DNA of 64,000 bases from a virus. Positions within the stretch are counted from its first letter, which is position 1. The number at the start of each line of letters is the position of its first letter. The stretch spans positions 18,354-82,353 of IMG/VR virus record IMGVR_UViG_3300030202_002990; one strand, 5' to 3'. Both the position numbers and the translations under genes were made by a program. Of this stretch, positions 14,251-59,347 are shown piece after piece. Under the pieces are notes generated by a model. The model did not search any database. It worked only from the letters and a program-made list of their open reading frames with translations, and was not told the origin of the DNA.

Positions 14251-16236
14251 CTACAATTTATTCCCAATTGAATCGCCAATTGACCGTGCCTCCACATCAA
14301 TATTTGGGTATTTCAATTCGAATATACTTGGGTCAAGTGATGGATAAACTATACCATCTTTGGTTGCGTAATTTATATCGTAAATATTACCTGAGTAACC
14401 ATCTGCAGTACTGAACTTGTTAGTAATCAATACTGGTACATTTTTAGGATTATCAACCGTAGGTGGAACTATCGCACCTACACCTTCAACGATAGATAAT
14501 TCATATGCCAACTCTTGTAAAACAATTGGTTGGTTAACTTGCCACCTATCTATTTGGAAAAAATCTTTCACCTTTTGTATAACTTGTAATGATACTTGGT
14601 CTTTATTGAATCCAGTACGACATATAAAATTTACTTTTAATCCAATATTAATAATATATGCATCTTTTATATTGACCGCATCCGTCATTAATCTATATTG
14701 TGAAAGATATGTTTTTAAATTTTCTTTTACTGCTAAATTTAAAGTAGTTAATTTTTTACCAGCTGTATATCCAAGAGTGTATAAATTAAGTGCATTTGGA
14801 TTAGGTAATCTATTAGAAGAAGCAGCATCTTGTGACTTAAGTTGGTCAAGGTTTCTTTCATCCATAAAAAGATTAGACTTGACTTCTTTTTGCATTGTTG
14901 GTATATTCAATTGTTCATCTTGAACAATGTATGCCTTTGCTATAGCTCCAAATTTAGGTGGTAATGCATATACCCTTGTTATGTAATCTTCACGAGTTAC
15001 ACTCCTACCTTGAGCCTGAAAGTAAGCTAAAGCATTTTCTTTTAGTTCTTCTGTTGTTTCTGCACCTTTACCACCATTAGCTGGAAATGGATTTGTTACT
15101 GCTACAGAATCTTTAACTGTTGCGACCAATCCAGCATTTAAACTTGTTTCATCTAATGTTAATGATATTTCTGATAAATTAGAAATACTATCTTGGGTAG
15201 CGTTATCACCTAATCCACCACCATGAGAATATTTTATTGTAAGTATTGTGTTTGATGGTGATTGACCATAAGCTTCTGTTTTTAAAAAGTTAGATGGGTC
15301 AAAGTATGTATCTAAATAAGTTGGACTACCAGGTAATGATGAACCTACATTACTTGGATTTGGTACTATTTCTTCATCAAACGAATCACTTACACCTGCC
15401 CCAAATCTTAATTCAGTTCTACTATCAGCCCTTATAAAAGTTTTAAATCGTCTTGGAGTTTTTAGAAGTTTTAAAAGGTATGGTGCTTCATCACTATATT
15501 GTGATAGTTCAGAATCATTAGCTGCAGTATTTTGTACAGAATCAAACAATGTGTCTTGTGCTAAAAATGGAACCTCTTTCCAAGTATTACCATCACTATC
15601 TGTACAAGATATTATTTCTAATACATTCTCACTTCCTAATATAATCCTTTGATACTTTTTAGCACTTCCAAAACTAAATTGTTCTTCAACAACCGTTCCA
15701 CTTACAACACCTACCGTTTTCTTTAGTAGATAAAAAGTTGGGGCCGTTCCTGATGTTTCATAAATACTTACCGTGGTTGGGTCAAAAGAACTTGAGTAAG
15801 AAAAGTTGACATTTTCTCTTATCCTAAATGTAGTTGTACCAGTAGAAGCCAATGTTCCTTCATTAACTTGTAGTGCATAATTGTAATTAGGTCTCACATT
15901 AACACCCGTACCAACTGCTGGTACTATTTGAAATATATCAAGGTTGGTAAATGACGGAGACGACAACTTAGGTTTGTATCCAAAGGATTGTGCCATTTCA
16001 AATAAAGTTTTTGTGTCTTCTGCATAAGCTAATAATTGTTCTTTGAATTGTGAATCTACATAGTAAGACAACACATCACCAACATAAGATGCCATCTCAA
16101 TAAACATCATACCAGGTGATGCTTCATTAAAATCATTATATGTGTTTGGATAGTATTGTTTTGCAAAATCGATTAAATCAGAACGAAATCCTGAAAAATC
16201 TTTGTTTAAATATCTTACTTCTTTTTGTGCTGGCAT
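14251..16236 (-). CDS. Baseplate wedge subunit (T4 gp6 / baseplate J-like)
   Basis: YLNKDFSGFRSDL...YNDFNEASPGMMFIEMASYVGDVLSYY and GG..AET.EE....A...F.AQ.R.VTREDY. Confidence 0.85.
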   Translation of the reverse strand: MPAQKEVRYLNKDFSGFRSDLIDFAKQYYPNTYNDFNEASPGMMFIEMASYVGDVLSYYVDSQFKEQLLAYAEDTKTLFEMAQSFGYKPKLSSPSFTNLDIFQIVPAVGTGVNVRPNYNYALQVNEGTLASTGTTTFRIRENVNFSYSSSFDPTTVSIYETSGTAPTFYLLKKTVGVVSGTVVEEQFSFGSAKKYQRIILGSENVLEIISCTDSDGNTWKEVPFLAQDTLFDSVQNTAANDSELSQYSDEAPYLLKLLKTPRRFKTFIRADSRTELRFGAGVSDSFDEEIVPNPSNVGSSLPGSPTYLDTYFDPSNFLKTEAYGQSPSNTILTIKYSHGGGLGDNATQDSISNLSEISLTLDETSLNAGLVATVKDSVAVTNPFPANGGKGAETTEELKENALAYFQAQGRSVTREDYITRVYALPPKFGAIAKAYIVQDEQLNIPTMQKEVKSNLFMDERNLDQLKSQDAASSNRLPNPNALNLYTLGYTAGKKLTTLNLAVKENLKTYLSQYRLMTDAVNIKDAYIINIGLKVNFICRTGFNKDQVSLQVIQKVKDFFQIDRWQVNQPIVLQELAYELSIVEGVGAIVPPTVDNPKNVPVLITNKFSTADGYSGNIYDINYATKDGIVYPSLDPSIFELKYPNIDVEARSIGDSIGNKL

Positions 16237-17791: not shown

Positions 17792-19356
17792 TAAACATCC
17801 ACTTTTGTTAATATGTTACATATTCTTGCCCGTATGGTCTCCACTCCAGCCTCCCATGCAGCCATTGCTGGTTGATTTGTTGGGCCACTACTGATTGGGC
17901 CACTTGGGCCTGCACCAGTTGCTATACCTGTCAAACTAAGAATTGTGCTTCCTAATTCAACAAATGAATTACAAACACTATCCAATAAATCTGCTAACTC
18001 CTCACCATAAACCAAATGTTGTTCCTTAACATCATCACGACCTTTTATGTATATAACAGCTTCATCATTACTACCACCTATTTTAAAGTAACTTCCGTTG
18101 TCGGTGTATAATCCTGCACAATCATCAAGGTGAACATTTGCACCTTTACAACTTTCTAAATGTGCTTTATCATCAAGTGTTAAAAAAGATGGACATTCAC
18201 TTGACAAATATATTACATCAGGTCCTCCTTCTTTACCACCCTCTCCCAAATCTAATCTTGAATTACCAGGTGTTATCAAACTAATACCACCAGGTCTCAT
18301 ATCCATTGATGTGGCACCACCTGTATTAATATTCATTCCATCATCAGCATCGACTGTAAATGCTTTCTTGGTTGAGAATCCAATACCATCGTGACTAAAT
18401 CCAAGTATCTTTCCTCGTTTAGTATTGAATGTAATTCTATCTGAATTTATTGTTATTTGTTTACCACCAAGATTTGGTTGGTCATCTTCATGAAATGATG
18501 ACATATAAGAATGGTCATCAGCATTAGTTTCCTCTATATCAAGATTTACCTTTTGGTCTGTAGTCATCCATATTGAACTACCATCTGAATTTATGTTTTC
18601 TTCTGCAGGTTTGAAGTTTGTATCTTCAAGTTCTTGCCTTAAATTTTGTTCATCGAATAACTGAGCATCTGTTAGTTGTCCAACTCTCATCAATATGTTT
18701 GGAGAGTCTTGAGTAGATGTATCGTCTCCGTGTGCACCTTCAACTATTGCACTTCCAAATCTTATTGTATTACCAAATCTACCTTCAAGGGTCACATCAC
18801 CTTCTCTTGGTATTAATCTTCGTACTTTTTCATCATTACCAAAGTCTTTGTTTGCCTCAAAAAAGTCATATATGAAATCATCATCTATCATTTTTTGGTC
18901 TCTAAAACCACTTGTACCTGGTATTATATTTGCATTAACACTACCTAACATTGATACAACAGGTAAATAATAATGATTATTTAAATATTTTACAATAACC
19001 ACATGCTCATTTCTTAATGGCATCTTTGTCATGTTCATATCAAGAGGTTGATATATTTTTAATTTTGCAACAATCTTATCTTTTTCAGATTGGTGTGGTC
19101 TTGCCTTGATACAACCCAACAATCCCCAAATCTTTTCACCTTTGTCATTTTCAGGTAATTTTTCTTCGGAATCAAAAACTTCTAAGACTTCTGCTATTTC
19201 AAGTTCATAGTATTCCCAACCTTTGGGGTTTTGTGTATTTGACTTTACTATCTGTCTAACACGACCTTGTGTTGGCACTCCACTACCATCTTTATCATAT
19301 GTAGTTTTTTTAGGGCCCGAATCAGAATATTCCGAGCTTGGTGTCCAATGACCCAT
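17791..19356 (-). CDS. Baseplate hub / central spike (gp5/VgrG-like)
   Basis: N-terminal OB-like region (MPLRNEHVVI), 'EGDVTLEGRFGNTIRFGS', 'GKQITINSDRITFN' beta-helix region, C-terminal 'LVYGEEL...TGAGPSGP'. Confidence 0.7.
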   Translation of the reverse strand: MGHWTPSSEYSDSGPKKTTYDKDGSGVPTQGRVRQIVKSNTQNPKGWEYYELEIAEVLEVFDSEEKLPENDKGEKIWGLLGCIKARPHQSEKDKIVAKLKIYQPLDMNMTKMPLRNEHVVIVKYLNNHYYLPVVSMLGSVNANIIPGTSGFRDQKMIDDDFIYDFFEANKDFGNDEKVRRLIPREGDVTLEGRFGNTIRFGSAIVEGAHGDDTSTQDSPNILMRVGQLTDAQLFDEQNLRQELEDTNFKPAEENINSDGSSIWMTTDQKVNLDIEETNADDHSYMSSFHEDDQPNLGGKQITINSDRITFNTKRGKILGFSHDGIGFSTKKAFTVDADDGMNINTGGATSMDMRPGGISLITPGNSRLDLGEGGKEGGPDVIYLSSECPSFLTLDDKAHLESCKGANVHLDDCAGLYTDNGSYFKIGGSNDEAVIYIKGRDDVKEQHLVYGEELADLLDSVCNSFVELGSTILSLTGIATGAGPSGPISSGPTNQPAMAAWEAGVETIRARICNILTKVDV

Positions 19357-19954: not shown

Positions 19955-20176
19955 ATGAAGGAAATCATAACACTCGTCAAAGGTTGGGTAGATGATTTAG
20001 CTCATCTATTAATGTCCTTTGTTGCCATTGGTGCTATATCCGAAGTAATATTCGGTACTGGTGTCTTCGGCGTTAATGTTATTGGTAACCTAACACTAAT
20101 CATAAATAAATTCGGCGAATCCGGTTTCGCTGGGTTAGTCGCTTTATTGGTGTTAGTGGGTTTATTCCGTAAATAG
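19955..20176 (+). CDS. Small two-TM membrane protein
   Basis: SD GGAG, two hydrophobic segments, own TATTTAT motif and terminator. Confidence 0.75.
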   Translation: MKEIITLVKGWVDDLAHLLMSFVAIGAISEVIFGTGVFGVNVIGNLTLIINKFGESGFAGLVALLVLVGLFRK

Positions 20177-20193
20177 CTATTATCGGTGCACAG

Positions 20194-20224
20194 AAAAGGG
20201 GGAATTCATTTCCCCCTTTTTTTT
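20194..20224. terminator. Intrinsic (likely bidirectional) terminator
   Basis: AAAAGGGGGAA-TTCAT-TTCCCCC-TTTTTTTT. Confidence 0.85.
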
Positions 20225-20315
20225 GCTTTAAATTATGTATATTATGAGTTTATAAGGATATTTATTAACGATTGATATGTTTATCAATCATAACGCGTTA
20301 TTAATGGAGAGTATT

Positions 20316-20513
20316 ATGAAAACAATACTTACAAGTATACTTTCTTTATTTATCTTTTTTGGTGCTGTTCCAACTGCTAATGCTTCAGATATGAACAATA
20401 GTGCTGGAATGGAAGAAGTCAAGAAGAAGAAAAAGAAAGGTAAGAAGATAGGTGGTAAGAAAGGGAAGAAATCTAAGAAAGGTTTTTTCTCTAAAATCTT
20501 CGGAAGTAAATAA
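20316..20513 (+). CDS. Small secreted lysine-rich peptide
   Basis: Likely start MKTILT after GGAG. Signal peptide ending ANA, mature part KKKKKKGKKIGGKKGKKSKKGFFSKIFGSK. Confidence 0.65.
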   Translation: MKTILTSILSLFIFFGAVPTANASDMNNSAGMEEVKKKKKKGKKIGGKKGKKSKKGFFSKIFGSK

Positions 20514-20522
20514 TCTTAAAAC

Positions 20523-20553
20523 AAAAAGGGGAATAAAAATTCCCCTTTTTTTT
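20523..20553. terminator. Bidirectional intrinsic terminator between convergent genes
   Basis: AAAAAGGGGAAT-AAAA-ATTCCCC-TTTTTTTT. Confidence 0.85.
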
Positions 20554-20666
20554 ATTGTTTAGAATTTAAAAAAATCCTTGTAGTCATCAGCGTAAATTTT
20601 ACCAACAGAATATAATACTACAAAAGTAATCCCTAATCCTATATATAAACCAATCATAATAACCCC

Positions 20667-20984
20667 TTATTTTAGTTGTAATTTCTGTACCCAATCAGGT
20701 ACATTCTTTTCCATGTAATGTTGTATGACAAATGCTTCTACTATATGAGTAAAAAACCAAAAGAATGTTAATAGTGGAACAAATATCTGATAATCCATAT
20801 CTAACTTACTTATACCCAACCAAGTTAAAAATATCATACCAATTGATTTGGTTAAAAATCCCATTCCACTAAATCCCAAACTCATTATACTTCCTCGTTG
20901 CATCACGATATAAATTCCTACACATAGATGCATGAGATTTAGAAACACTGGTGCTAAAACACCTAAAACAATATATTCAATCAT
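20667..20984 (-). CDS. Membrane protein (about 3 TM)
   Basis: Hydrophobic helices throughout. Confidence 0.6.
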   Translation of the reverse strand: MIEYIVLGVLAPVFLNLMHLCVGIYIVMQRGSIMSLGFSGMGFLTKSIGMIFLTWLGISKLDMDYQIFVPLLTFFWFFTHIVEAFVIQHYMEKNVPDWVQKLQLK

Positions 20985-20994
20985 CAGTACTCCG

Positions 20995-21330
20995 TTATTT
21001 AAAAACTATCGGTAAAGTGTACTTTACTGTGACAGGTTTACCATTTTGGATTGCTGGATGATAAGAACTACTTCGTACTTTATCTAACACTACTTCATTA
21101 AGGTCAAGATTAAAAGTATCTCTGATAACAGGATTCTCTACTTCTCCCTTTTCATTTATAAAAAAATCCACAACTATTTTACCTTTTGGATTTTTTAAAA
21201 GTATATCTTCTCTAATGTCGTAGTATGTAAGTACGAATGGTACTTTGGGTTGGGGTAATTGACTCTCACCATTTGGTAAGTCTTGGGCTGTCAATAAGCC
21301 CATTAGCATTAGGTATGCTAGTGCTCTCAT
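20995..21330 (-). CDS. TonB C-terminal domain protein
   Basis: GKIVVDFFINEKGEVENPVI...YHPAIQNGKPVTVKYTLPIVF, with N-terminal signal sequence. Confidence 0.85.
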   Translation of the reverse strand: MRALAYLMLMGLLTAQDLPNGESQLPQPKVPFVLTYYDIREDILLKNPKGKIVVDFFINEKGEVENPVIRDTFNLDLNEVVLDKVRSSSYHPAIQNGKPVTVKYTLPIVFK

Positions 21331-21470
21331 CGGTTTTCTCCTTTATTTAGTGATAAGACTATGTTTCCGGTTTCTTGAAAAGTATTTCTACTTTTCAAAA
21401 CATAATTATCTTATATATTTAGAAAAAACACTTTTATTTACTTATTTTGTGATAGTTTTTTGTTAGATTG

Positions 21471-22100
21471 TTAAACTTTTTTCATTTTATATTCTAACTG
21501 AGATAATAAATTATTTATCTTTTCTAATTTGGGATGATTGGGGTTTTTTTCTAAAAGTTTATCTTTTGTATTCATCAACTTACCATAGGCCTTCTGTAAA
21601 TCTATTAGAGCAATTCCTTTCATACTTCGTCTGTAATATAGATGGTCAAGTGCTTCATCTTCTGCTTCAGCACCACGAACACCAGCAACTGCTGTTATCT
21701 GTTCTACTTCTCCGTATATGGTATCTTCTACATCTTGTATTTCTTGCCATACAGTATTATCCCACATGGCATCTAAATCTAAATTATCCATCTCTGCCAA
21801 TGCTTCTTGTGTATCTATACTATCTTGTTTGGCCCGTTCTATTTTTCTGAGTCTATCCCTTTCAGCAAATTCTTTATCTAAATTTACAGAACGGATTGAA
21901 TCACATTCAGATATCCACCCACCATAACCTTTCCAAGCAGGTGAACCTTTATAATCTCTATATTCCGTATCATCACAATCTTGTCCAAATGCAACATCTC
22001 GTTTAAACTCAGATGTTCTTGTGATACCTTGGTCTGTAAAGACTTGTTCGTCTACTTGTGAATACATAACACTTACTAACAATAATGGTAAGTATTTCAT
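21471..22100 (-). CDS. Secreted hypothetical protein
   Basis: Signal peptide and 'TAVAGVRGAE' motif. Confidence 0.55.
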   Translation of the reverse strand: MKYLPLLLVSVMYSQVDEQVFTDQGITRTSEFKRDVAFGQDCDDTEYRDYKGSPAWKGYGGWISECDSIRSVNLDKEFAERDRLRKIERAKQDSIDTQEALAEMDNLDLDAMWDNTVWQEIQDVEDTIYGEVEQITAVAGVRGAEAEDEALDHLYYRRSMKGIALIDLQKAYGKLMNTKDKLLEKNPNHPKLEKINNLLSQLEYKMKKV

Positions 22101-22215
22101 TTTTCTCTCTGTTGTTCAATTCTTTTTTTCTTCTTGTATTTCTTTATTGTTTGTTTCTCGTCTAATTCCCAAATAAGACAAGCTCCTAAACAAATAATGA
22201 TTAGAGGTGCCCAAC

Positions 22216-22641
22216 TCATAATATTTCTATTTCGGTTCCTATACCTCTCTTATCATATTGTGTTCCAACTACTATCGTATAAAAACCTGGTTCTATGTTA
22301 GATGACCATTCCGTTCTATATAATTTCCATGTATATGTTTCGATTCTTTTTCTTCCATCTCTATGTGGACTTAGAGAGATAGGTGTTTGATGTACACTCT
22401 TTCCATTTCCATCAAACATAAATAACTTGGTTTTTTTTCTTTTTACTTCGTATCTGACCTTTACACAAGGTCCTCCTTTTCTATCATAGTCCAACCAAGC
22501 AACAATTGGATGTTCATCGAAATCTACTAATGATGGGGTTACTACTGTAGGTTTAGAATCTTTTTCGGGTGAGAATATCACATATGCTAAACATATAAAG
22601 ATTCCACCATACAAAAGTAATTCTTTTATTTGATTACTCAT
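22216..22641 (-). CDS. Membrane-anchored Ig/FlgD-like hypothetical protein
   Basis: N-terminal TM and 'YTW.....IEPGFYTIVV' FlgD-Ig-like ending. Confidence 0.45.
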   Translation of the reverse strand: MSNQIKELLLYGGIFICLAYVIFSPEKDSKPTVVTPSLVDFDEHPIVAWLDYDRKGGPCVKVRYEVKRKKTKLFMFDGNGKSVHQTPISLSPHRDGRKRIETYTWKLYRTEWSSNIEPGFYTIVVGTQYDKRGIGTEIEIL

Positions 22642-22642
22642 A

Positions 22643-23089
22643 TTATTGTGCTATATATCTAATTGGTTCCTCAGATAATTCAAATGATGTAGAATCATAT
22701 GTATAATAATAAATTTCATCGTCACGCCTGTGATGAAAGATAGCAGGTTCTTCAGCATCAATCAAACTAAACTGCCATTCGTTATCCTCATCAGGTACAC
22801 CCAATGTTAAATTTATCTTGATATTACGAGTTCTACCCATGACTGTGAGTGGATTATAAGGCCATGATTCATTTCCAGTTTCGATTAGCTTATCACTTGC
22901 GTAAGTTTCACACCCTGCCCATATTGTATCTACAGTCGTCTTTTCAGCTGATACTGCTGCTGAGTTTAAAACAGATGTCATCTTAGGGACAGCCACTGCT
23001 GATAATATTCCTAAGATGACCATAACCATTACTAATTCTACTAAAGAAAAACCTTCATTCATTTTCTCTTTCAGTATTTTTTTTATCAT
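22643..23089 (-). CDS. Type IV pilin / pseudopilin
   Basis: Class III signal G|FSLVELVMVMVILGILSAVAVP. Confidence 0.92.
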   Translation of the reverse strand: MIKKILKEKMNEGFSLVELVMVMVILGILSAVAVPKMTSVLNSAAVSAEKTTVDTIWAGCETYASDKLIETGNESWPYNPLTVMGRTRNIKINLTLGVPDEDNEWQFSLIDAEEPAIFHHRRDDEIYYYTYDSTSFELSEEPIRYIAQ

Positions 23090-23091
23090 TT

Positions 23092-23562
23092 TTATTGTCC
23101 TTCCAAATCTCGTCTATATACAACTTGATTTGGTTGATATGGTGGATTGGAATATCCAATCTCACCCGTTGATGAATTATAAGTCCAAACTGCTAAACTA
23201 TCTTCTTTCCTACGATGAACTATTGAATTTTTAAAATCATTACTTGCTTCACCAGTAAAAATCCAATCACTATCGTTCATCTCTACCATCAAAGTGGTAT
23301 TTGATTTGTCGTAGGATTGTGGTACTTTATTAAGTGCGTCAAATGGATTGTTTGGCCACTCTTGGACACCATTATCGATAAACTCTTCTTGACTATAAGT
23401 ATCTAAAGCAGCGACCAAATTAATCAAAACTCCTTGTTCGGAAGCTGCTTCGGATTGTCGGACAATATTTGTAAATCTCGGTATCGAAACTGCGGCTAAA
23501 ATTCCAATGATTACCATTACCATAATCAGTTCGACTAAGGTAAAACCATTCTTTCTATTCAC
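23092..23562 (-). CDS. Type IV pilin / pseudopilin
   Basis: G|FTLVELIMVMVIIGILAAVSIPRF. Confidence 0.92.
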   Translation of the reverse strand: MNRKNGFTLVELIMVMVIIGILAAVSIPRFTNIVRQSEAASEQGVLINLVAALDTYSQEEFIDNGVQEWPNNPFDALNKVPQSYDKSNTTLMVEMNDSDWIFTGEASNDFKNSIVHRRKEDSLAVWTYNSSTGEIGYSNPPYQPNQVVYRRDLEGQ

Positions 23563-24004
23563 TTGACAGACTTTCTCGGTTTCCTAAGAATCCAGTAGTG
23601 TCTGCATCTGTTCCTGTGTTTACTCCTGCGTCATACTCCCACTTAAACCTTGAGTTGTCTGAGCGTTGATGAGTAATGTAAGCTGGGTCACCATCTACAA
23701 ATGTCCACTCGTTATCTGTGTCGGCGTTTGTACCATCATCAGTATAAGTTTGTGGTTTGTCTTTAAGTGCGTCAAAGGGATTATCTGGCCATATAGCTCT
23801 TCCACTATCTATGAGTTTATGAACTCCATAGTTTTCGAGTGCTACACCAATATTACTGACGACAGCATCTTCAGAAGCTTCTTCAGCTTTTGTAATGGTC
23901 TCCAAGTATCTTGGGATAGCGACAGCTGATAATATACCTAATATTATCATTACCATGATTAATTCAATCAAGGTAAATCCGTCTTGGTTATTTAGTTTCT
24001 TCAT
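23555..24004 (-). CDS. Type IV pilin / pseudopilin
   Basis: G|FTLIELIMVMIILGILSAVAIPRY. Confidence 0.92.
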   Translation of the reverse strand: MKKLNNQDGFTLIELIMVMIILGILSAVAIPRYLETITKAEEASEDAVVSNIGVALENYGVHKLIDSGRAIWPDNPFDALKDKPQTYTDDGTNADTDNEWTFVDGDPAYITHQRSDNSRFKWEYDAGVNTGTDADTTGFLGNRESLSSE

Positions 24005-24035
24005 TTTCTTGTCCTTTCAGGTTTGTTATTAAGAA

Positions 24036-24704
24036 TTAAGGTACTAAAGTTTTATGTAGTTTAGATGGGTTCTCAGTATCTATCACGACAAGAACAGGTG
24101 CCTGTGCTGATGTACCACTACCACTTCCTGGTATAATTAGGTAAGCGTATGAACCATCCTGAAATGGTGAGGTTAAACCATTGTTACCAAAATCTTGTTT
24201 GAAGTCAAGAGCACCAATTTCAGAGTTACCATCGTAACCAACTGATGTTTCAAGACTCATCCAATCGTTTTGTAAAGCGTCATCATCATCGGAAGATGGT
24301 GAGAACACATATACGAATTCACTAAGGTCATCTGTATAAGATTCTTTTTGGTCAAGGATAGTTTCTACATATGCTTCAAGTGTTTCGTCTGTAGATGCAT
24401 CTTCGGATAAATCAACACCACCAACGGCGACATCATACTTTTCTTGTCCTGGAAATCTTCCTTTTCCTTCTTCAGATAATGTTTGGTTATAAAAGTTGTT
24501 TGCTACAGTTAAGATTTTATCAATGTTTGCCATTGTCTTTTTCTCTTTAGCACCTGCACCAACTGCACCAAATTTTGGAGCGGCTGTTGTAGCTAATGTA
24601 GCCATCATTGCAGTAGTAACAGCGAATTCAGCTAGTGAATTACCATTAGTACTCTTGAGTTTTCTCATAAAAGATTTTACGAGTTTCTTTATTGTTTCGA
24701 ACAT
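24036..24704 (-). CDS. Atypical type IV pilin (probable major pilin)
   Basis: Basic leader, G|NSLAEFAVTTAMMATLATTAAPKF with E5 and P22 retained. Strong SD AGGAG. First gene of the cluster. Confidence 0.75.
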   Translation of the reverse strand: MFETIKKLVKSFMRKLKSTNGNSLAEFAVTTAMMATLATTAAPKFGAVGAGAKEKKTMANIDKILTVANNFYNQTLSEEGKGRFPGQEKYDVAVGGVDLSEDASTDETLEAYVETILDQKESYTDDLSEFVYVFSPSSDDDDALQNDWMSLETSVGYDGNSEIGALDFKQDFGNNGLTSPFQDGSYAYLIIPGSGSGTSAQAPVLVVIDTENPSKLHKTLVP

Positions 24705-24766
24705 TTCAGTTCTCCTTCTTTTGTATTTTTCTAATAGATTCGAATAACCTATTCCTACCTATATGG

Positions 24767-24783
24767 TACAATAACTGTACCAA
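24767..24783 (-). promoter_or_regulatory. Sigma54 (-24/-12)-like promoter of the pilin operon
   Basis: Minus strand TTGGTACAGTTATTGTA versus consensus YTGGCACGRNNNTTGCW, exact spacing, GT instead of GC at -12. Confidence 0.55.
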
Positions 24784-24845
24784 AGTACCCCAATTTTTAA
24801 AGTTTTTTTTATGTTACAATATTGTTGTACTTAGAAGTAGGCAAT

Positions 24846-24873
24846 AAAAAACCACTTGAATAAGTGGTCTTTT
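24846..24873 (-). terminator. Intrinsic terminator after the sigma factor gene
   Basis: Minus strand ACCACTT-ATTC-AAGTGGT-TTTTT. Confidence 0.7.
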
Positions 24874-24889
24874 ACATTGTGTATTGTTT

Positions 24890-24906
24890 TGTTACTCTAT
24901 GTAACA
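24890..24906. promoter_or_regulatory. Palindromic putative upstream activator site
   Basis: TGTTAC-TCTAT-GTAACA, with further TGT...ACA half-sites nearby, about 110-145 bp upstream of the -24 box. Confidence 0.4.
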
Positions 24907-24924
24907 GTTTGTAATATCATTTTG

Positions 24925-25644
24925 TTACAAAAACGAACCTGTACTTTGGGTATCAATCATACCATTATTTAGATATTCAGTAGAAAGATTCTGATGATAT
25001 TTTTTCATCGTGTTGACAATTCGAGTAATGTGTTGTGTTTTGGAACCACTCATCTCACGAATCATAATGTACAATGCCTTCTTGTTGAAGTTTTCAATAT
25101 GTTCAGACCTTCTGAATATTTCCAATACAGAATCAGCAACCAATATATCTTTCTTTCTTGTAAAAACATTAGTGATATTGTTTTCCCAATACTCAATAAA
25201 TTGATTTACATACTCTTTGACACTTTCATTTTCTTCAGCCGTATTCATCTCTTCTTTATTTTTCTTATTCCAATCTAACACATCCAAACCATCATGTGAT
25301 TTATAATGAGCATAATTTTTATTATTGTGTAGAATTAGATAATTCTTAGCAACAATACTAAAGTATGAGAAAGCCTTTCCCTTACCTTCTTTGAATTTAT
25401 GCATATTTAATACCAAAAATGATATTACTTCTTGTTTAACTTGTTCACTTGAAACATCAAAGTAATAAAACTTAAATGTATGAATTATATTTTCACATAA
25501 TTTATCAAACGCCCTTCTTATATGGTCGTTGTAAATTCTTTCTTTCATGTAAGCCCGTTCTTCTTTATTGTAACGGATTATTGCATCTTCAGTTCCTTGT
25601 GTGAAATAATATCTTGGTGAACTTTTTTTAGCTTTTCTTGGCAT
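24925..25644 (-). CDS. Phage sigma-factor-like protein (gp55/sigma70 region 2-like)
   Basis: 'QEVISFLVLNMHKFKEGKGKAFSYFSIVAKNYLI' resembles sigma region 2. Confidence 0.65.
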   Translation of the reverse strand: MPRKAKKSSPRYYFTQGTEDAIIRYNKEERAYMKERIYNDHIRRAFDKLCENIIHTFKFYYFDVSSEQVKQEVISFLVLNMHKFKEGKGKAFSYFSIVAKNYLILHNNKNYAHYKSHDGLDVLDWNKKNKEEMNTAEENESVKEYVNQFIEYWENNITNVFTRKKDILVADSVLEIFRRSEHIENFNKKALYIMIREMSGSKTQHITRIVNTMKKYHQNLSTEYLNNGMIDTQSTGSFL

Positions 25645-25903
25645 TTGTGTCCTCTTCTATGTATTGGTTTAATTCTTCAATTGTTTCTTTGATGGATGTA
25701 AATATACTACCGATTTCGTCATCTGATTCAAAATGACCAGTAGAATCTATCGTTTGAATTTCTTCATAAGTACTAGCTACTCTGTCACTAAAGTCCTCGA
25801 CCCAAGTTTCTAATAACTCTACCTTGTTAAGTAAGTTCCAAACAACATAACTCTCGGTAATAAAAATTACAACCATTAATCCTAAAATAATTTCTAATAT
25901 CAT
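25628..25903 (-). CDS. Membrane-anchored hypothetical protein
   Basis: N-terminal TM and coiled coil. Confidence 0.5.
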   Translation of the reverse strand: MILEIILGLMVVIFITESYVVWNLLNKVELLETWVEDFSDRVASTYEEIQTIDSTGHFESDDEIGSIFTSIKETIEELNQYIEEDTNAKKS

Positions 25904-26109
25904 TCTTCCACCACCCCAACAGAAACTTCAACTTCATTAGCTGGTCTCCATTCACTATCTCCATCATCCCAATCAATATCCTCTACCCATTCAGGTTCAT
26001 CAATATCACCAGCTTGGAACTTTCTATATTCTTCAGCTTGTTCTTCTGTTATTTCAACATTAGTCCAAACATCATTTTCTTGTATTGTGTATCTTTGTAA
26101 ATACGGCAT

Positions 26110-26895
26110 TTAACTTTCTCCAAAAAGTTCGTCAAACAAATCTTGATGTTTAGACTTCTTTTCTTCTTTTTTAGGTTTAGGTTTATCAGTACCCACACTT
26201 ATGTTCTTGATTTTATCTAACCGAGCTTCCATCTCTTCTTTCTCATCTTCGTCACCTCGTTTCCATTCATCATATTCAGCTTGTGTAGCCATATGGTCAG
26301 CCCAATGTATGATGTATGGCATATGATTTTTTAAGGAACGACTTGCATCAAACACTTTCATATAGTAGGTGTTTGCTTCGTCATATAACCCATCAGATAC
26401 CTTGATAGCAAGAGTTTCTTTCATATTAACCTTAATACCAAAGTGTTGTAATATAAACAACGCTCTATCCGTTACCCTCATATTATCTATATCTGTGTTG
26501 TGTGTAAAAACCTCACCGAGAGTCTTTCTTCTCCAATCATTATCTTGAGGAATATAATACTCTGAGTTTAAATCTCCAACCTTACCCAAGTCATGGTGCA
26601 TAGCAGAAAAGATTAATTCTTCATCTGTCCAATCTTTATAACCACCAACCTTTTCATATGTCTTGGATACTTCTAATGCTGTTTCAACCACATGAAGAAC
26701 ATGATTAACATAACCACCAGCGTAACAATAATGGTATTCTTCTTTACCACTTGCTGGAGCTACAACCATTCTATCTTCAAAGTATTTGTACATCTCCAAG
26801 AGTTTTTCCTTTCGGTCACCCTCAAATGTATCTTCTACGAGTTGTAACAGCTTTTCCCAATTACCAAGTAATTGTTCTTCTGTTAATTGTTTCAT
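26110..26895 (-). CDS. HD-domain phosphohydrolase
   Basis: APAS...H..YAGGYVNHVLHV, HHDLGKVG, HWAD motifs. Confidence 0.85.
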   Translation of the reverse strand: MKQLTEEQLLGNWEKLLQLVEDTFEGDRKEKLLEMYKYFEDRMVVAPASGKEEYHYCYAGGYVNHVLHVVETALEVSKTYEKVGGYKDWTDEELIFSAMHHDLGKVGDLNSEYYIPQDNDWRRKTLGEVFTHNTDIDNMRVTDRALFILQHFGIKVNMKETLAIKVSDGLYDEANTYYMKVFDASRSLKNHMPYIIHWADHMATQAEYDEWKRGDEDEKEEMEARLDKIKNISVGTDKPKPKKEEKKSKHQDLFDELFGES

Positions 26896-27128
26896 TTATA
26901 ACCTTTTTAATTTCTTCTTATCTATAGTCATCTTGTGTTGATAACAACCTTCCGTTTGAACTACGGTATATTTTTTACCACCATCAATAACTTCTGTACA
27001 TTGATATGCCGGTTCGAACTTTCCAATCTGAACATTAGTAGGATACACCCAATCACCAACTTCAATTGGTTTATCTGAATATCTGTATGCCTTTTTTCTG
27101 CCTCTTTTAGCCATTTTTGACTCCTTAT

Positions 27129-27677
27129 TTATGATTTATTATTTTGTATTAATTGTAAATTGTCTGTCCAATTCATCTTGTAGATATGGACATTTTCATA
27201 TTTGTATGGTATTACATTTTCTGATTCTAAAATATCCACAACATTGACCCACTTTGGATTCATAGTATCTCTTACTTGATATACTCCATCTTTATCTTTT
27301 GTTCCCTTGATGTATATAAAATCTCCATAGTCAAATCCACCACCCCATCTCTTCAATAGATTTCGTGATAGAGCTACAAACTTGTATTCACTTGCTTTAT
27401 GAATACGAATCCTTGTTCCATCTGCTGTAACATCAGGTGTATCATCACATTGAATAGTATTTGGTTGATACATAGTTACATCTACCTCTACTCCAAACCT
27501 ATAAAACTCGTGAAGTTCTTTGTGTAGTTTTTGATTCATTACCATTAACGAATCACTTGATTGTTTATACATACTTGAATGTTTGGTCATCATACTTGTT
27601 GAGATGTACCCATTCATAAAAGTTACAAACACCATCCCCGCAATAGCTGTAGTTGTACTTATAGTTTTGTTTAACAT
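27129..27677 (-). CDS. 3D-domain (MltA-like/DPBB) cell-wall protein
   Basis: VTMYQP...TADGT...FVALSRNL...GD.IYI...YQVRDTM...VDI, N-terminal TM. Confidence 0.75.
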   Translation of the reverse strand: MLNKTISTTTAIAGMVFVTFMNGYISTSMMTKHSSMYKQSSDSLMVMNQKLHKELHEFYRFGVEVDVTMYQPNTIQCDDTPDVTADGTRIRIHKASEYKFVALSRNLLKRWGGGFDYGDFIYIKGTKDKDGVYQVRDTMNPKWVNVVDILESENVIPYKYENVHIYKMNWTDNLQLIQNNKS

Positions 27678-27733
27678 ATTATTATACCTCGTTTTGATAT
27701 TAGAAATTACAAAATAAATTCATAAAAGTCAAG

Positions 27734-29185
27734 CTATTTTTTATAAAAAATAAAAATAGGCTCATACTTTAAATAAGTTCCATTAACCTTTACCGAGTTT
27801 TTGACATTAGATTGGTCAACTCCGACCATTGAAGTCATCAACATTTTGAGTTTACCTTGATATTCCCCACCGAGGTTTTCGATTATATCGATACTATCTT
27901 GTTCAAGATGGTGGTATTTATCTTTACCGATTTTGATATCGGCGATGTTCCACAATAAATATCTATCATTCCTTAAACTTTGATATGCATTAGTTAATGT
28001 AGGTTTAAGGAAGTTGTCTCTCCAATCATCATACTTAGGATATGCCTTAAATGATTGTTCTTCATCTTCACTATATTGTTCTCTATCAAAGTAAGGTGGT
28101 GATGTAAACACCATATCTAACTTACCTTTGTATTGTTGAAAATCAGGATGGTTTCCAATGTGTTCACTACCTTCTTGAAAATAGTGAAATGTATTTTTTT
28201 CTTCTTCCCAAAAATTATTACTTTCTAAAACCTCATTGTTAAAGAAATTAGCAACATATTCATACCTTGATATACCTACCTCATCGATAAAATTATCTGT
28301 GTTTGGGTCTGTTCCAATATAATGTATTCTTTTTAATGAAGACATAGCACCTAATATTCTACCACCCCAACCACTTGATGGGTCGTAGATATTTAATTGT
28401 TTGGGTTCGAGTTCATTGATATTAATATGGTCTGTAAATCTTTCATACAAATATCTGGCTGTCAATGGTGGAAAGTTTACAGCAGGTTGTCCTAATCCTA
28501 ATCTAAAAGCTTGTATACCAGCTGGGAATAACTTCAACTTAATTTGTTTGGGGTTTCTTAAAACATTCCTAACCAAGAATTTATATGTATCACCATCTAA
28601 TTCTTTTGGTAGATTGGTTTTATGTTTATCATCTAACTTCTCTACTTCCTCAACTGATAAAGTCTTATACATACTTTCTACAGCGTTATGTTTGTGTTGT
28701 ACGATAAAGAAGTTTTCAGGTATCTCTTCACCATCTAAGACACACTTTGACCAATTATACATTGAATCTCTTTTTAATATTCTCAGTATAACTTTTTCAA
28801 ACTTATGTTTATACTCATCAGTAAACCAATCATAGATACTACCATTCTGAACACGAGTCTTTAACATCGTGGGAAAGAATTGATTAACACTACTAGCATG
28901 TTTATTATAATTCTTAATTACATTTTTATTACCATCATCATCGTGGATTAAAAATTTATTGTGAACATCATACTCTCTAAGTTTTTTAAAGTTCTTTTTT
29001 ATAACTTTGGTATTGGAACCGATAGTTGGTGGAATACCCTTATCATCCCATTCAGATATAATAAAACTTCTAAGTTTTTCAATCCATTCAGAAGTTTCTT
29101 TTTCGTTCATATATAGTAATTCCTCAAAGTTGATGTTTACATCACTTTCAAGCAAATTACTTCTTTCATAATAGTATTTTTTCAT
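27734..29185 (-). CDS. DNA amino-methyltransferase
   Basis: SAM motif YDPSSGWGGR and catalytic FTSPPY. Confidence 0.85.
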   Translation of the reverse strand: MKKYYYERSNLLESDVNINFEELLYMNEKETSEWIEKLRSFIISEWDDKGIPPTIGSNTKVIKKNFKKLREYDVHNKFLIHDDDGNKNVIKNYNKHASSVNQFFPTMLKTRVQNGSIYDWFTDEYKHKFEKVILRILKRDSMYNWSKCVLDGEEIPENFFIVQHKHNAVESMYKTLSVEEVEKLDDKHKTNLPKELDGDTYKFLVRNVLRNPKQIKLKLFPAGIQAFRLGLGQPAVNFPPLTARYLYERFTDHININELEPKQLNIYDPSSGWGGRILGAMSSLKRIHYIGTDPNTDNFIDEVGISRYEYVANFFNNEVLESNNFWEEEKNTFHYFQEGSEHIGNHPDFQQYKGKLDMVFTSPPYFDREQYSEDEEQSFKAYPKYDDWRDNFLKPTLTNAYQSLRNDRYLLWNIADIKIGKDKYHHLEQDSIDIIENLGGEYQGKLKMLMTSMVGVDQSNVKNSVKVNGTYLKYEPIFIFYKK

Positions 29186-46270: not shown

Positions 46271-47434
46271 TTAAGACATATCCCCATTAGCGTTTTCAAT
46301 TTCTTCTTCGTTGAATAGGTCACTTGAACTACCATCATTCACATACTTCTGAACCAATTGTTTTACATAGGTTCTCTCGGATTCAACACCACCATCATTT
46401 GAGTATTGTGGGTAAACACAAACCTCGGCGGCTTCATCAAGACCAAACCCATCGTAGAGTAATCCAGCGATTTCTACAGAAGTACGAGTGGAAATACCAC
46501 TTGTGATTCTACCACTTTCACTATTAGACTCGACACGAGTAGAGGAAGCGATTTCTGAAACAGACTTCAACATTTCTGAATCAACATGAGGAAACATATA
46601 ATCAAGTAAACCATGTTCTTCATCAGAGTTCAACACATCCATCTCAACAGTTATGAATCTATCCATAAGTGCTTTATCCATAACACGAGTAGAAGTATAC
46701 TCATTACCGATGTTAGCGGTCGCGACGAATGTAACACCTTCTGCGACAGGTACGGTTTCTTGAGTAGTTGACTCATCAAGTCTCAAGTATCTCTGTCCAC
46801 TATCCAAAACGGTCATCAGAATGTTCCAAGCGTCTGGATGAGCTCTTGATAATTCATCAAGAAGAATCACAGCGTTTGGAGTCTGAATCGCTTTCACGAA
46901 TAGTGCTTCTGAAAAGTAAGTACCTTTCTTTTTATCGAAATGAGTGTTACCAATCAAAGATGAACGCGGGTCTTGTGTCGCTCCTAAGTTAAAGTAGAAG
47001 TCAGGTCGGTCAAGTGAATTAACCAATGACTTAGCTGCCATTGTTTTACCACAACCGGCGGGACCCGTCATCAAAATATTCTTACCACGAACAGCGGAAC
47101 GAACCAAGTACTTCCACTTCAATTCTTTCATCACCAAACCTTTAGGTTTAAGACTATAAGAACTATGGATGAAGTTAAGAACTTCAGCGTGGTCTGAAGG
47201 AACATCAACAGATGAAACATCAGGAACAATCACTTGTTCAAATTCACTCATTGGAACCTTCCACCAGTAAACTCTATCGTTTTTACCACTTCTTTTCTCA
47301 AGTGCCATTCCAGCTTCATAAGCTGACTTCCTTGTTGAAGTGATAATTTCAGAGGTAAGTTTGTTACCATCCTTATCGAAGGCGTTGAACCTATTACCAC
47401 TCTTTTCTATTTTTACTACAATTTTATTATTCAT
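46271..47434 (-). CDS. MoxR/CbbQ-type AAA+ ATPase
   Basis: GPAGCGKT, ILLDELSR, ATANIG, MDKALMDRF. Confidence 0.9.
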   Translation of the reverse strand: MNNKIVVKIEKSGNRFNAFDKDGNKLTSEIITSTRKSAYEAGMALEKRSGKNDRVYWWKVPMSEFEQVIVPDVSSVDVPSDHAEVLNFIHSSYSLKPKGLVMKELKWKYLVRSAVRGKNILMTGPAGCGKTMAAKSLVNSLDRPDFYFNLGATQDPRSSLIGNTHFDKKKGTYFSEALFVKAIQTPNAVILLDELSRAHPDAWNILMTVLDSGQRYLRLDESTTQETVPVAEGVTFVATANIGNEYTSTRVMDKALMDRFITVEMDVLNSDEEHGLLDYMFPHVDSEMLKSVSEIASSTRVESNSESGRITSGISTRTSVEIAGLLYDGFGLDEAAEVCVYPQYSNDGGVESERTYVKQLVQKYVNDGSSSDLFNEEEIENANGDMS

Positions 47435-58524: not shown

Positions 58525-58536
58525 CTATTTTCCTTG

Positions 58537-58607
58537 AGTCGTGGGTGAGATTTGAACTCACATACACGGGTTTGCAATCCGCTACCTAACCATTCGGACA
58601 CCACGAC
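58537..58607 (-). tRNA. tRNA-Cys(GCA)
   Basis: GTCGTGG...GGATT-GCA-AACCCG...GTTCAAATC...CCACGAC-T. U73 discriminator, CCA not encoded. Confidence 0.9.
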
Positions 58608-59206: not shown

Positions 59207-59273
59207 AAGCTATTTTAGGCTGTTTATAAGGCTTCTGCTTGTTTATTAATATAGTTCTTTAATCAATCTTTTG

Positions 59274-59347
59274 TGGAGCTGACTGGACTTGAACCAGCGA
59301 CCTCTTCAGTGCAAGTGAAGCGTTCTCCCAAACTGAACTACAGCCCC
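59274..59347 (-). tRNA. tRNA-Ala(TGC)
   Basis: GGGGCTGTAGTTCAG...CTTCA-CTTGCAC-TGAAG...GGTTCAAGTCC...CAGCTCCA, with G3.U70. Confidence 0.95.

Follow-up and report, generated by a model that had tools for sequence, protein, structure and literature searches.

The 64,000-nucleotide stretch of viral DNA analyzed here (hereafter the window; positions 18,354 to 82,353 of IMG/VR record IMGVR_UViG_3300030202_002990) carries at positions 22643-24704 a cassette of four type IV pilin genes, designated pilA', pilB', pilC', and ORF4, which is a fixed feature of a marine phage family and not an oddity of one contig. The reading favored here, to which a probability of roughly 0.55 is attached, is that the cassette is a pilus-subunit operon matching that of the host, carried by large marine myovirus-type phages of one family of SAR406 bacteria, and that its products yield a re-surfaced host pilus, most likely for phage exclusion. 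The source record, classed as a virus in IMG/VR, is 82,353 bp long and has an estimated completeness of 45%, and positions given without a locus label are those of the window.

The interval 22643-24704 is occupied exactly by four tightly packed open reading frames (ORFs) on the minus strand, namely ORF4 (24036-24704, 222 amino acids), pilA' (23555-24004, 149 amino acids), pilB' (23092-23562, 156 amino acids), whose GTG start produces an 8-nucleotide overlap with the end of pilA', and pilC' (22643-23089, 148 amino acids). The products of the latter three begin with a lysine- and asparagine-rich leader, followed by the signature G↓F(T/S)L(V/I)EL (the arrow marks the predicted cleavage site; G↓FTLIEL in pilA', G↓FTLVEL in pilB', and G↓FSLVEL in pilC') and a hydrophobic helix. 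They score 34.7, 35.0, and 27.6 bits, respectively, against PF07963 (N_methyl; cut-off 21.2 bits), also pass the cut-off of TIGR02532, and match phrog_3433 ("pilin"), so that a preliminary description of this DNA, which had recognized three canonical prepilins and one divergent pilin here, is confirmed by the reading frames, by both of these families, and by the ORF4 profile described below. The three are paralogues with a mutual identity of 37-42%, pilA' belonging to a WPxNP family and pilC' to a phage-specific pilin type. Among their shared motifs, WPxNP and D..W.F are invariant, as is H.R, whereas the HxRxD listed in the same description is found in two of the pilins and reads H-R-R-K-E in pilB', giving the consensus HxRx(D/E). 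Glu+5 is invariant across 60 pilins. In type IVa pilins, this residue is required for assembly. Identity with the pseudopilin GspG (TIGR01710) was considered and rejected; the three proteins reach 34.5-42.0 bits against an equivalog cut-off of 88.85, in matches that are confined to the N-terminus and extend at most over residues 6-86, and so do not qualify as GspG equivalogs.

An AlphaFold model of pilA' (predicted local distance difference test, pLDDT, 83.2) comprises a helix at residues 12-67 and four strands. The fold most similar to it is that of the MshA pilus of Shewanella (Z 6.5, root-mean-square deviation 3.0, 103 residues aligned), and pilins account for about 20 of the 25 top rows of the structure search. 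A Foldseek comparison with the PDB returned no match at E ≤ 0.001 for the models of either pilA' or ORF4, the top match of pilA' being a weak one to FimA (E 0.53) and ORF4 giving none. The modest Z values corroborate the sequence evidence for pilin identity and are not to be read as stand-alone proof.

ORF4 is the divergent member of the set and has no family match in Pfam (scanned to E ≤ 0.1), NCBIfam, or PHROG. It nevertheless reads as a type IV prepilin with a 21-residue basic leader, MFETIKKLVKSFMRKLKSTNG, preceding the mature start NSLAEFAVTTAMMATLATTAAPKF at the predicted cleavage site G↓NSLAEF. G21 (Gly-1), E26 (Glu+5), and P43 (Pro+22) are invariant in 39 homologues, and a profile built from these aligns the leader and the same three residues with those of solved pilins (Geopilin, E 6.4e-5; MshA, E 0.027). 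In structure comparisons with the ORF4 model (pLDDT 70.9), seven rows extend across the globular part (starting at residues 43-55 and ending at 221-222), and each of them is a pilin or pseudopilin, with Z values of 4.3-5.0. The ORF4-type subunit is characterized by Asn+1 and a helix rich in threonine, alanine, and methionine, and is a candidate shaft (major-type) subunit. It shares about 42% identity overall with the host copies introduced below, whereas the first ~25 mature residues are identical. A Flp/Tad (type IVc) affiliation was considered on account of the G-x4-EF motif; the mature protein is of about 200 amino acids, and the PilD-type peptidase (A24_N_bact) of the host, together with its PilM, PilO, and secretin genes, points to a type IVa-like system.

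The setting of the cassette in the phage genome is highly conserved. At least 110 viral stretches in IMG/VR encode a relative when scanned with the pilin alignment, and among the 80 loci kept, an ORF4 homologue is present in 73, a homologue of the downstream gene o209 in 68, and one of the intervening gene o141 in 47. The recurrent gene order is MT483-o182-HD261-o91-s239-ORF4-pilin(s)-o141/o209-TonB_C-m105-o73-o130-o521. The number of close pilins varies between loci: there are three in L001-L015, as in the window, mostly two or three in L016-L057, and one in L058-L080. Each of the four genes is under purifying selection, with dN/dS ratios (nonsynonymous to synonymous substitution rates) of 0.06-0.19 between the window and five related phages; where synonymous sites were saturated, as in some pairs, no value was obtained. 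That the cassette is an artefact, with host DNA misjoined to phage DNA or the contig itself cellular, is a notion that its close cellular relatives and host-type promoter might encourage; its probability is nonetheless negligible. Dozens of viral contigs, each assembled independently, repeat the gene order with its flanking phage genes, at least half of the sequence words of 21400-25700, a stretch spanning both junctions, are present in 14 DNA sequencing runs (20 DNA and RNA holders from 10 studies in all), GC content is flat across the region, and the phage copies form clades of their own. The assembly chimera with host DNA that the preliminary description had named as a refuting condition is refuted by this synteny, in which 80 contigs keep the cassette at one site with the same phage neighbors.

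The nature of the phage itself is less firmly defined. The label "myovirus" draws on a single gp6-like baseplate wedge gene (14251-16236) and its closest cultured relatives, in Microcystis phage Mel-JY01 (46% identity) and the Flavobacterium myophage "immuto" (39%). The label "lytic" agrees with the failure to find an integrase but is unproven in a record that is only ~45% complete. Against cultured phages, a DNA search with 20001-28000 returned a single 194-nucleotide match, and tblastn searches of the same phages returned nothing for ORF4 and, for pilA', matches to the N-terminal helix only, such as to a "pilin" of Synechococcus phage ACG-2014f.

The closest cellular relatives of the cassette belong to the SAR406 lineage, also known as Marinimicrobia and now carrying the NCBI phylum name Fidelibacterota. 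When prokaryotes were scanned with each species represented by a single genome, loci L081-L091 alone gave full-length relatives with 55-72% identity. Two of these loci are labelled Marinimicrobia or Neomarinimicrobiota, and the remainder derive from unlabelled marine metagenome-assembled genomes (MAGs); DNA matches to labelled loci pair L088 with L089 (94%) and L085 with L087 (88%). A further locus labelled Neomarinimicrobiota, L092, matches at 72% over a partial stretch (residues 5-68). The next-best relatives are from other Fidelibacterota (32-42%), and all others match the N-terminal helix only. Identity to the SAR406 pilins amounts to 60-66% for pilA' and 49-53% for pilB'. ORF4 narrows the range still further; full-length matches were found in two of 151 phylum-wide genomes (G007 and G147), both of the same GTDB family, the other 11 matching genomes aligning only with the N-terminal ~75 profile positions. 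Within the family of G007, 30 of 54 genomes encode full-length matches, in one to five copies each. The comparison with cellular pilin operons that had been proposed as a means of identifying the host thus points to a SAR406 pilus locus, and the probable phage host is one family of Marinimicrobia.

This locus, represented by L083 (a 583-kb contig) and L088 (a 220-kb contig continued by L170), combines the homologues with the genes of a type IV pilus system. Annotated on L083 are a prepilin peptidase (PilD; A24_N_bact and Peptidase_A24), an ATPase (T2SSE and MshEN), a sigma-54 activator (Sigma54_activat and HTH_8), a PilC-type platform protein (T2SSF), and an Mrr-like gene. There follow two or three ORF4 homologues and 8-15 strong tandem WPxNP pilin paralogues with two weak ones, and then, annotated on L088/L170, genes for a LamG protein, an AAA_22/PilM protein, PilO, a 183-amino-acid protein, a secretin, a group comprising a CHASE2-cyclase, an FG-GAP protein, and a tetratricopeptide repeat (TPR) protein, and finally a 152-amino-acid ORF homologous to o209.

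Several features of the host side are worth recording in their own right. Tandem paralogues of one pilin family lie together with ORF4-type genes at L083:7789-19038 and L088:4910-12580, and of the seven ORF4-type copies that L083, L088, and L092 contain, six have a sigma-54-type motif of their own and the seventh a one-mismatch variant. The layout resembles a system for varying the pilus surface, and the host locus, with its 8-15 pilin paralogues and one to five ORF4-type genes, looks like the cell's side of a pilus-centered arms race. Past the secretin, L170:2299-12718 (genome G007) encodes a CHASE2-adenylate/guanylate cyclase, a 1427-residue FG-GAP protein, a 912-residue TPR protein, and the small o209 homologue, and the cyclase gene suggests a cyclic-nucleotide input to the host pilus system. 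One locus recovered in the cellular scan, the 2.7-kb contig L081 (L081:1-2729) of a bacterial MAG, has the phage arrangement of ORF4, three pilins, o141, and o209; it groups with phage copies in trees and is probably phage DNA binned with a bacterium.

In agreement with the preliminary description, which had noted no prepilin peptidase, ATPase, or secretin in the window, family searches of the whole 82-kb record found no Peptidase_A24, no T2SSE above cut-off, and no Secretin. Neither Peptidase_A24 nor T2SSE was found in five related contigs, nor Secretin in four (52-72% complete in each case). As all of these records are fragments, absence of the machinery from the complete genomes is probable, not proven. 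A T2SSE match of 14.4 bits inside 46271-47434 was rejected; the protein is a MoxR/AAA_5-type ATPase with a CbbQ_C tail that lacks GAFTGA and is neither a pilus ATPase nor a sigma-54 activator, its weak matches to T2SSE and Sigma54_activat being due to the shared P-loop. The reading of ORF 746-1432 as a stand-alone MshEN protein was likewise discarded, Pfam giving no match to this ORF at E ≤ 0.01 and PF05157 none anywhere in the record.

Upstream of ORF4, the cassette appears to have retained the host's own control region, and its transcription would depend on sigma-54. A sigma-54-type -24/-12 promoter, TGGTACAGTTATTGTA, is predicted on the minus strand at 24767-24782; it is followed by ATATAGGTA and then by an AAGGAGA ribosome-binding site upstream of ORF4. 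Four copies of the motif lie in the window, against 0.75 expected, one in the orientation of the genes and three on the plus strand. The relaxed -24/-12 motif also precedes ORF4 homologues elsewhere and occurs in 53 of 61 distinct upstream regions, phage and host together; the host copies range from the canonical TGGCACAGATATTGCT (L088) to TTGT variants, and the eight regions without the motif include that at L083 7789, which reads CGGCAT-N5-TTGCT. Farther upstream on the same strand, at 24890-24929, TGTAACA/TGTTACA half-sites, including TGTTAC-N5-GTAACA, can be read directly in the sequence and are candidate binding sites for a putative PilR-like sigma-54 activator of the host; the same palindromes precede the host's ORF4 homologues in both L083 and L088. 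The required sigma factor is available in the host; rpoN (Sigma54_DBD) is present in four of four host genomes and not in the phage record, and a Sigma54_activat and HTH_8 protein is encoded within the host pilus locus itself. A different reading of the promoter region, in which the palindrome TGGTACA-N5-TGTACCA is a repressor site, was rejected because the phage loci preserve the -24/-12 positions but not the second half of this palindrome. The cassette is divided from the upstream gene (24925-25644) by a hairpin terminator at 24851-24868 (ACCACTT-loop-AAGTGGT and a T-run), identified by a terminator scan with the T-run read on the minus strand.

The cassette is present in RNA libraries. Contigs from four marine RNA runs, belonging to four studies, cover and bridge pilC' through ORF4 at ~95% identity, examples being contigs of 1711 nucleotides over 22535-24248, 1820 nucleotides over 22637-24459, and 1078 nucleotides over 22993-24068. 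Bins at 24856-25431 are without cover in the four runs and those of o209 have little, such uncovered parts counting as no evidence. The RNA contigs that end at 24718 continue into unlike sequence, so that the start of the transcript cannot be read from them.

The phage pilins are of two kinds. In a tree of 84 rows (a quick IQ-TREE run with SH-aLRT, an approximate likelihood-ratio test, as the only support), the pilA' clade (support 99, starred) includes six cellular rows and the pilB' clade (99, starred) eight, whereas the 20 rows of the pilC' clade (98, starred), which takes in the single pilin of L058-L080, are from phages only. The best identity of pilC' among the 54 genomes of the host family is 42%. 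In the ORF4 tree, a branch with a support of 91, unstarred, has all five cellular rows on the same side; a single capture of ORF4 by phages is possible on this topology, which includes only those five host rows. The conserved core of the module, on present sequence comparisons, comprises ORF4, a pilC'-type pilin, and o209, usually with o141, and pilA' and pilB', for which close cellular orthologues still exist, are additions to it.

The two accessory genes of this module lie immediately downstream of pilC' on the minus strand. o141 (22216-22641) begins one nucleotide past pilC', to which it is translationally coupled, and encodes a membrane-anchored protein of no known family; its 61 relatives come without exception from marine metagenomes, none has a Pfam domain, and no homologue was found in five host genomes. 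A complex prediction for the globular part of pilC' with the periplasmic part of o141 scored 0.00, which speaks neither for nor against binding. o209 (21471-22100) encodes an exported protein whose residues 103-205 are 50-52% identical to an ORF of about 150 amino acids in four of the five host genomes; in the one genome in which its location was examined, the match (residues 105-206, 51% identity) is to the 152-amino-acid ORF that ends the host pilus gene string. A protein atlas search with o209 returned no usable match.

The preliminary suggestion that the pilins depend on host machinery and enter or alter the host pilus is supported by the absence of the searched machinery families from the phage contigs, the adjoining SAR406 pilus locus, the conservation of processing and assembly residues, and purifying selection. 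In the mechanism proposed, the sigma-54 RNA polymerase of the host and a PilR-like activator would transcribe the cassette from the host-type -24/-12 promoter. The four prepilins would enter the inner membrane, where the host prepilin peptidase would cut them after Gly-1, and would be polymerized by the MshE-type ATPase, PilC platform, and PilQ secretin of the host. ORF4 would replace or mix with the ORF4-type shaft subunit of the host, and the three GFxLxE pilins would occupy the places of host minor or tip pilins. The most likely benefit would be a working but re-surfaced pilus that evades competing pilus-binding phages or, once the cell has lysed, the phage's own progeny, in parallel with the prophage protein P-FimU. 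Exclusion of competing or progeny phages is favored because bench precedents exist and because pili raise phage encounter rates in dilute seawater, as stated in the available part of a recent preprint (bioRxiv 10.1101/2025.09.20.677514); a pilus-centered contest is therefore plausible for planktonic hosts.

A number of points weigh against this reading. Sigma-54 transcription, processing, incorporation into the pilus, and the exclusion phenotype are steps that we infer, and pilus binding by this phage or by any competitor is hypothetical. The phage promoter, TGGTAC-N5-TTGTA, keeps the GG element, but its -12 element is GT where the exactly spaced consensus, TGGCAC-N5-TTGC, has GC, as is also the case in some host copies. 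The RNA evidence consists of contigs, in which carry-over of DNA is possible and from which strand, level, and single-transcript status cannot be read. The host is assigned by similarity alone, the structural Z-scores (6.5 at most) lie within the range that the search tool calls common, and the phage records are 45-72% complete, so that machinery genes may lie on their unseen parts. Finally, pilC' and o141 are without a close cellular counterpart, and part of the module is therefore not explained by plain replacement of host subunits.

Each of the remaining explanations accounts for some of these features. Phage subunits might serve simply to keep or raise piliation, whether for particle attachment, buoyancy, uptake of DNA or nutrients, or holding the cell in place until lysis, with exclusion not being the point. 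The retention of every assembly residue under purifying selection would suit such a role, as would a promoter of the host's own type, from which expression would follow the host pilus regulon, and a study of SNJ2, a virus of archaea, describes viral pilins whose filaments come to predominate and aid both motility and the formation of biofilms (PMC12426801). Supply alone, however, needs neither a phage-only pilin clade nor an ORF4 globular domain that has diverged from the host copies while the polymerization helix has stayed identical, and this alternative is considered rather unlikely.

The opposite effect, in which the subunits act as dominant-negative "poisons" that block extension at the platform or cap the fiber, with loss of pili during infection, has been suggested in one report for the truncated PilA-like proteins that virulent Pseudomonas phages encode (PMC12952977), and the lack of close cellular counterparts of pilC' and o141 would be compatible with it. 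All four proteins nevertheless have their full length, the phage family conserves their globular domains in complete form, and Glu+5 is invariant. One blocker would suffice where ORF4 and one to three pilins are retained; a poisoning role is accordingly improbable. It is similarly doubtful that the core of ORF4, the phage-only pilC', o141, and o209 makes the infected SAR406 cell build a phage-specified, virocell-specific filament on the host machine, possibly one that tethers uninfected hosts or particles. The persistence of ORF4, a pilC'-type pilin, and o209 (usually with o141) even in the single-pilin loci L058-L080, and the phage specificity of pilC' and o141, speak for it, and if it were true, tethering would raise the local density of hosts for progeny in encounter-limited open-ocean water. 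The identity of the ORF4 N-terminal polymerization helix with that of the host, however, favors co-assembly with host subunits, as in the re-surfacing reading preferred here.

Phage-encoded pilus subunits are already known as a kind, and the preliminary remark that a whole pilin set on a myovirus is unusual is tempered by reports that, as far as they are available, demonstrate phage-encoded pilins at the bench (PMC12952977; PMC12426801), as well as by the fixation of the cassette in a phage family. The prophage protein P-FimU enters the Pseudomonas pilus, whose function is kept, and blocks tip-binding phages, and PilA-like genes occur also in non-temperate phages, according to the accessible text of Sztanko et al. 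(Cell Rep 2026, PMC12952977). The present case resembles P-FimU in that a host-type pilus subunit is encoded by a phage lacking machinery of its own (here, in the contigs searched). The P-FimU and PilA-like cases described in that text are single genes in Pseudomonas or Xylella phages, whereas here an operon, known from genes alone, combines a shaft-type pilin with one to three further pilins and two accessory exported proteins, has a host-like sigma-54-type promoter, and holds a fixed position in a large marine phage family with an uncultured host. The SNJ2 pilins PilA1 and PilA2, as described in the accessible portions of the report, were captured from the host, duplicated, and are assembled by host PilB/PilC (Cell Rep 2025, PMC12426801). 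Likeness to the present case extends to the host origin of the viral pilins, the want of viral machinery, and the presence of further chromosomal pilin paralogues in the host; SNJ2, however, is by the same account a temperate archaeal pleolipovirus with archaeal pilins, the filaments of which are the receptor for a second virus, whereas here the system is a bacterial type IVa pilus/MSHA-like one and the phage is tailed. Tip, Aqs1, and Zip of Pseudomonas prophages share the aim proposed here of making the pilus unavailable to other phages but are small PilB or PilZ inhibitors that stop pilus function and not subunits (PMC12426801; bioRxiv 10.1101/2024.03.05.583538).

Among characterized pili, the MSHA pilus is the nearest in structure, the MshA fiber of Shewanella (PDB 9lab) being the best structural match of pilA' and the host ATPase sharing the MshEN domain. 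The host LamG and AAA_22/PilM proteins presumably correspond in kind to MshQ and MshM/MshI, which we take them to resemble. Sequence similarity to MSHA is, however, limited to the N-terminal helix, and the ORF4-type subunit matched no described family in Pfam, NCBIfam, or PHROG.

The literature searches made here found no report of a pilin cassette in SAR406/Marinimicrobia phages. SAR406/Marinimicrobia are abundant, uncultured ocean bacteria, and the cassette offers a concrete and testable host assignment, down to one bacterial family, for widespread large marine phages. It takes the idea of phage-made pilins beyond the single genes of Pseudomonas prophages to an operon of several genes with a host-type promoter, one that long phage evolution has left at a constant place in the genome and that includes a pilin type (pilC') and an accessory protein (o141) found only in phages. 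Thousands of metagenome proteins match the pilin profile, many of which are probably ordinary pilins.

The neighborhood of the cassette contains further small genes. Downstream of it lie 20995-21330, encoding a small exported TonB_C protein, and 20667-20984, encoding a 105-residue multi-pass membrane protein, with counterparts in 20 and nine of the 80 related loci, respectively, so that several envelope-targeted proteins are encoded beside the cassette. The TonB_C protein was discarded as an independent link to the host, as its matches are generic (30-35% identity). The sole plus-strand gene nearby (19955-20176) encodes a 73-residue membrane protein that 27 of the 80 loci share, with a median identity of 85%. 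The gene adjoining the cassette on its upstream side (24925-25644) encodes a protein of 239 amino acids that matches no family and recurs as a homologue in 20 of these loci. Elsewhere in the window, 30916-32112 matches phrog_9582 ("dehydrogenase") with an E value of 3.5e-102, and tRNA genes for Cys-GCA and Ala-TGC are located at 58536-58607 and 59273-59347, respectively.

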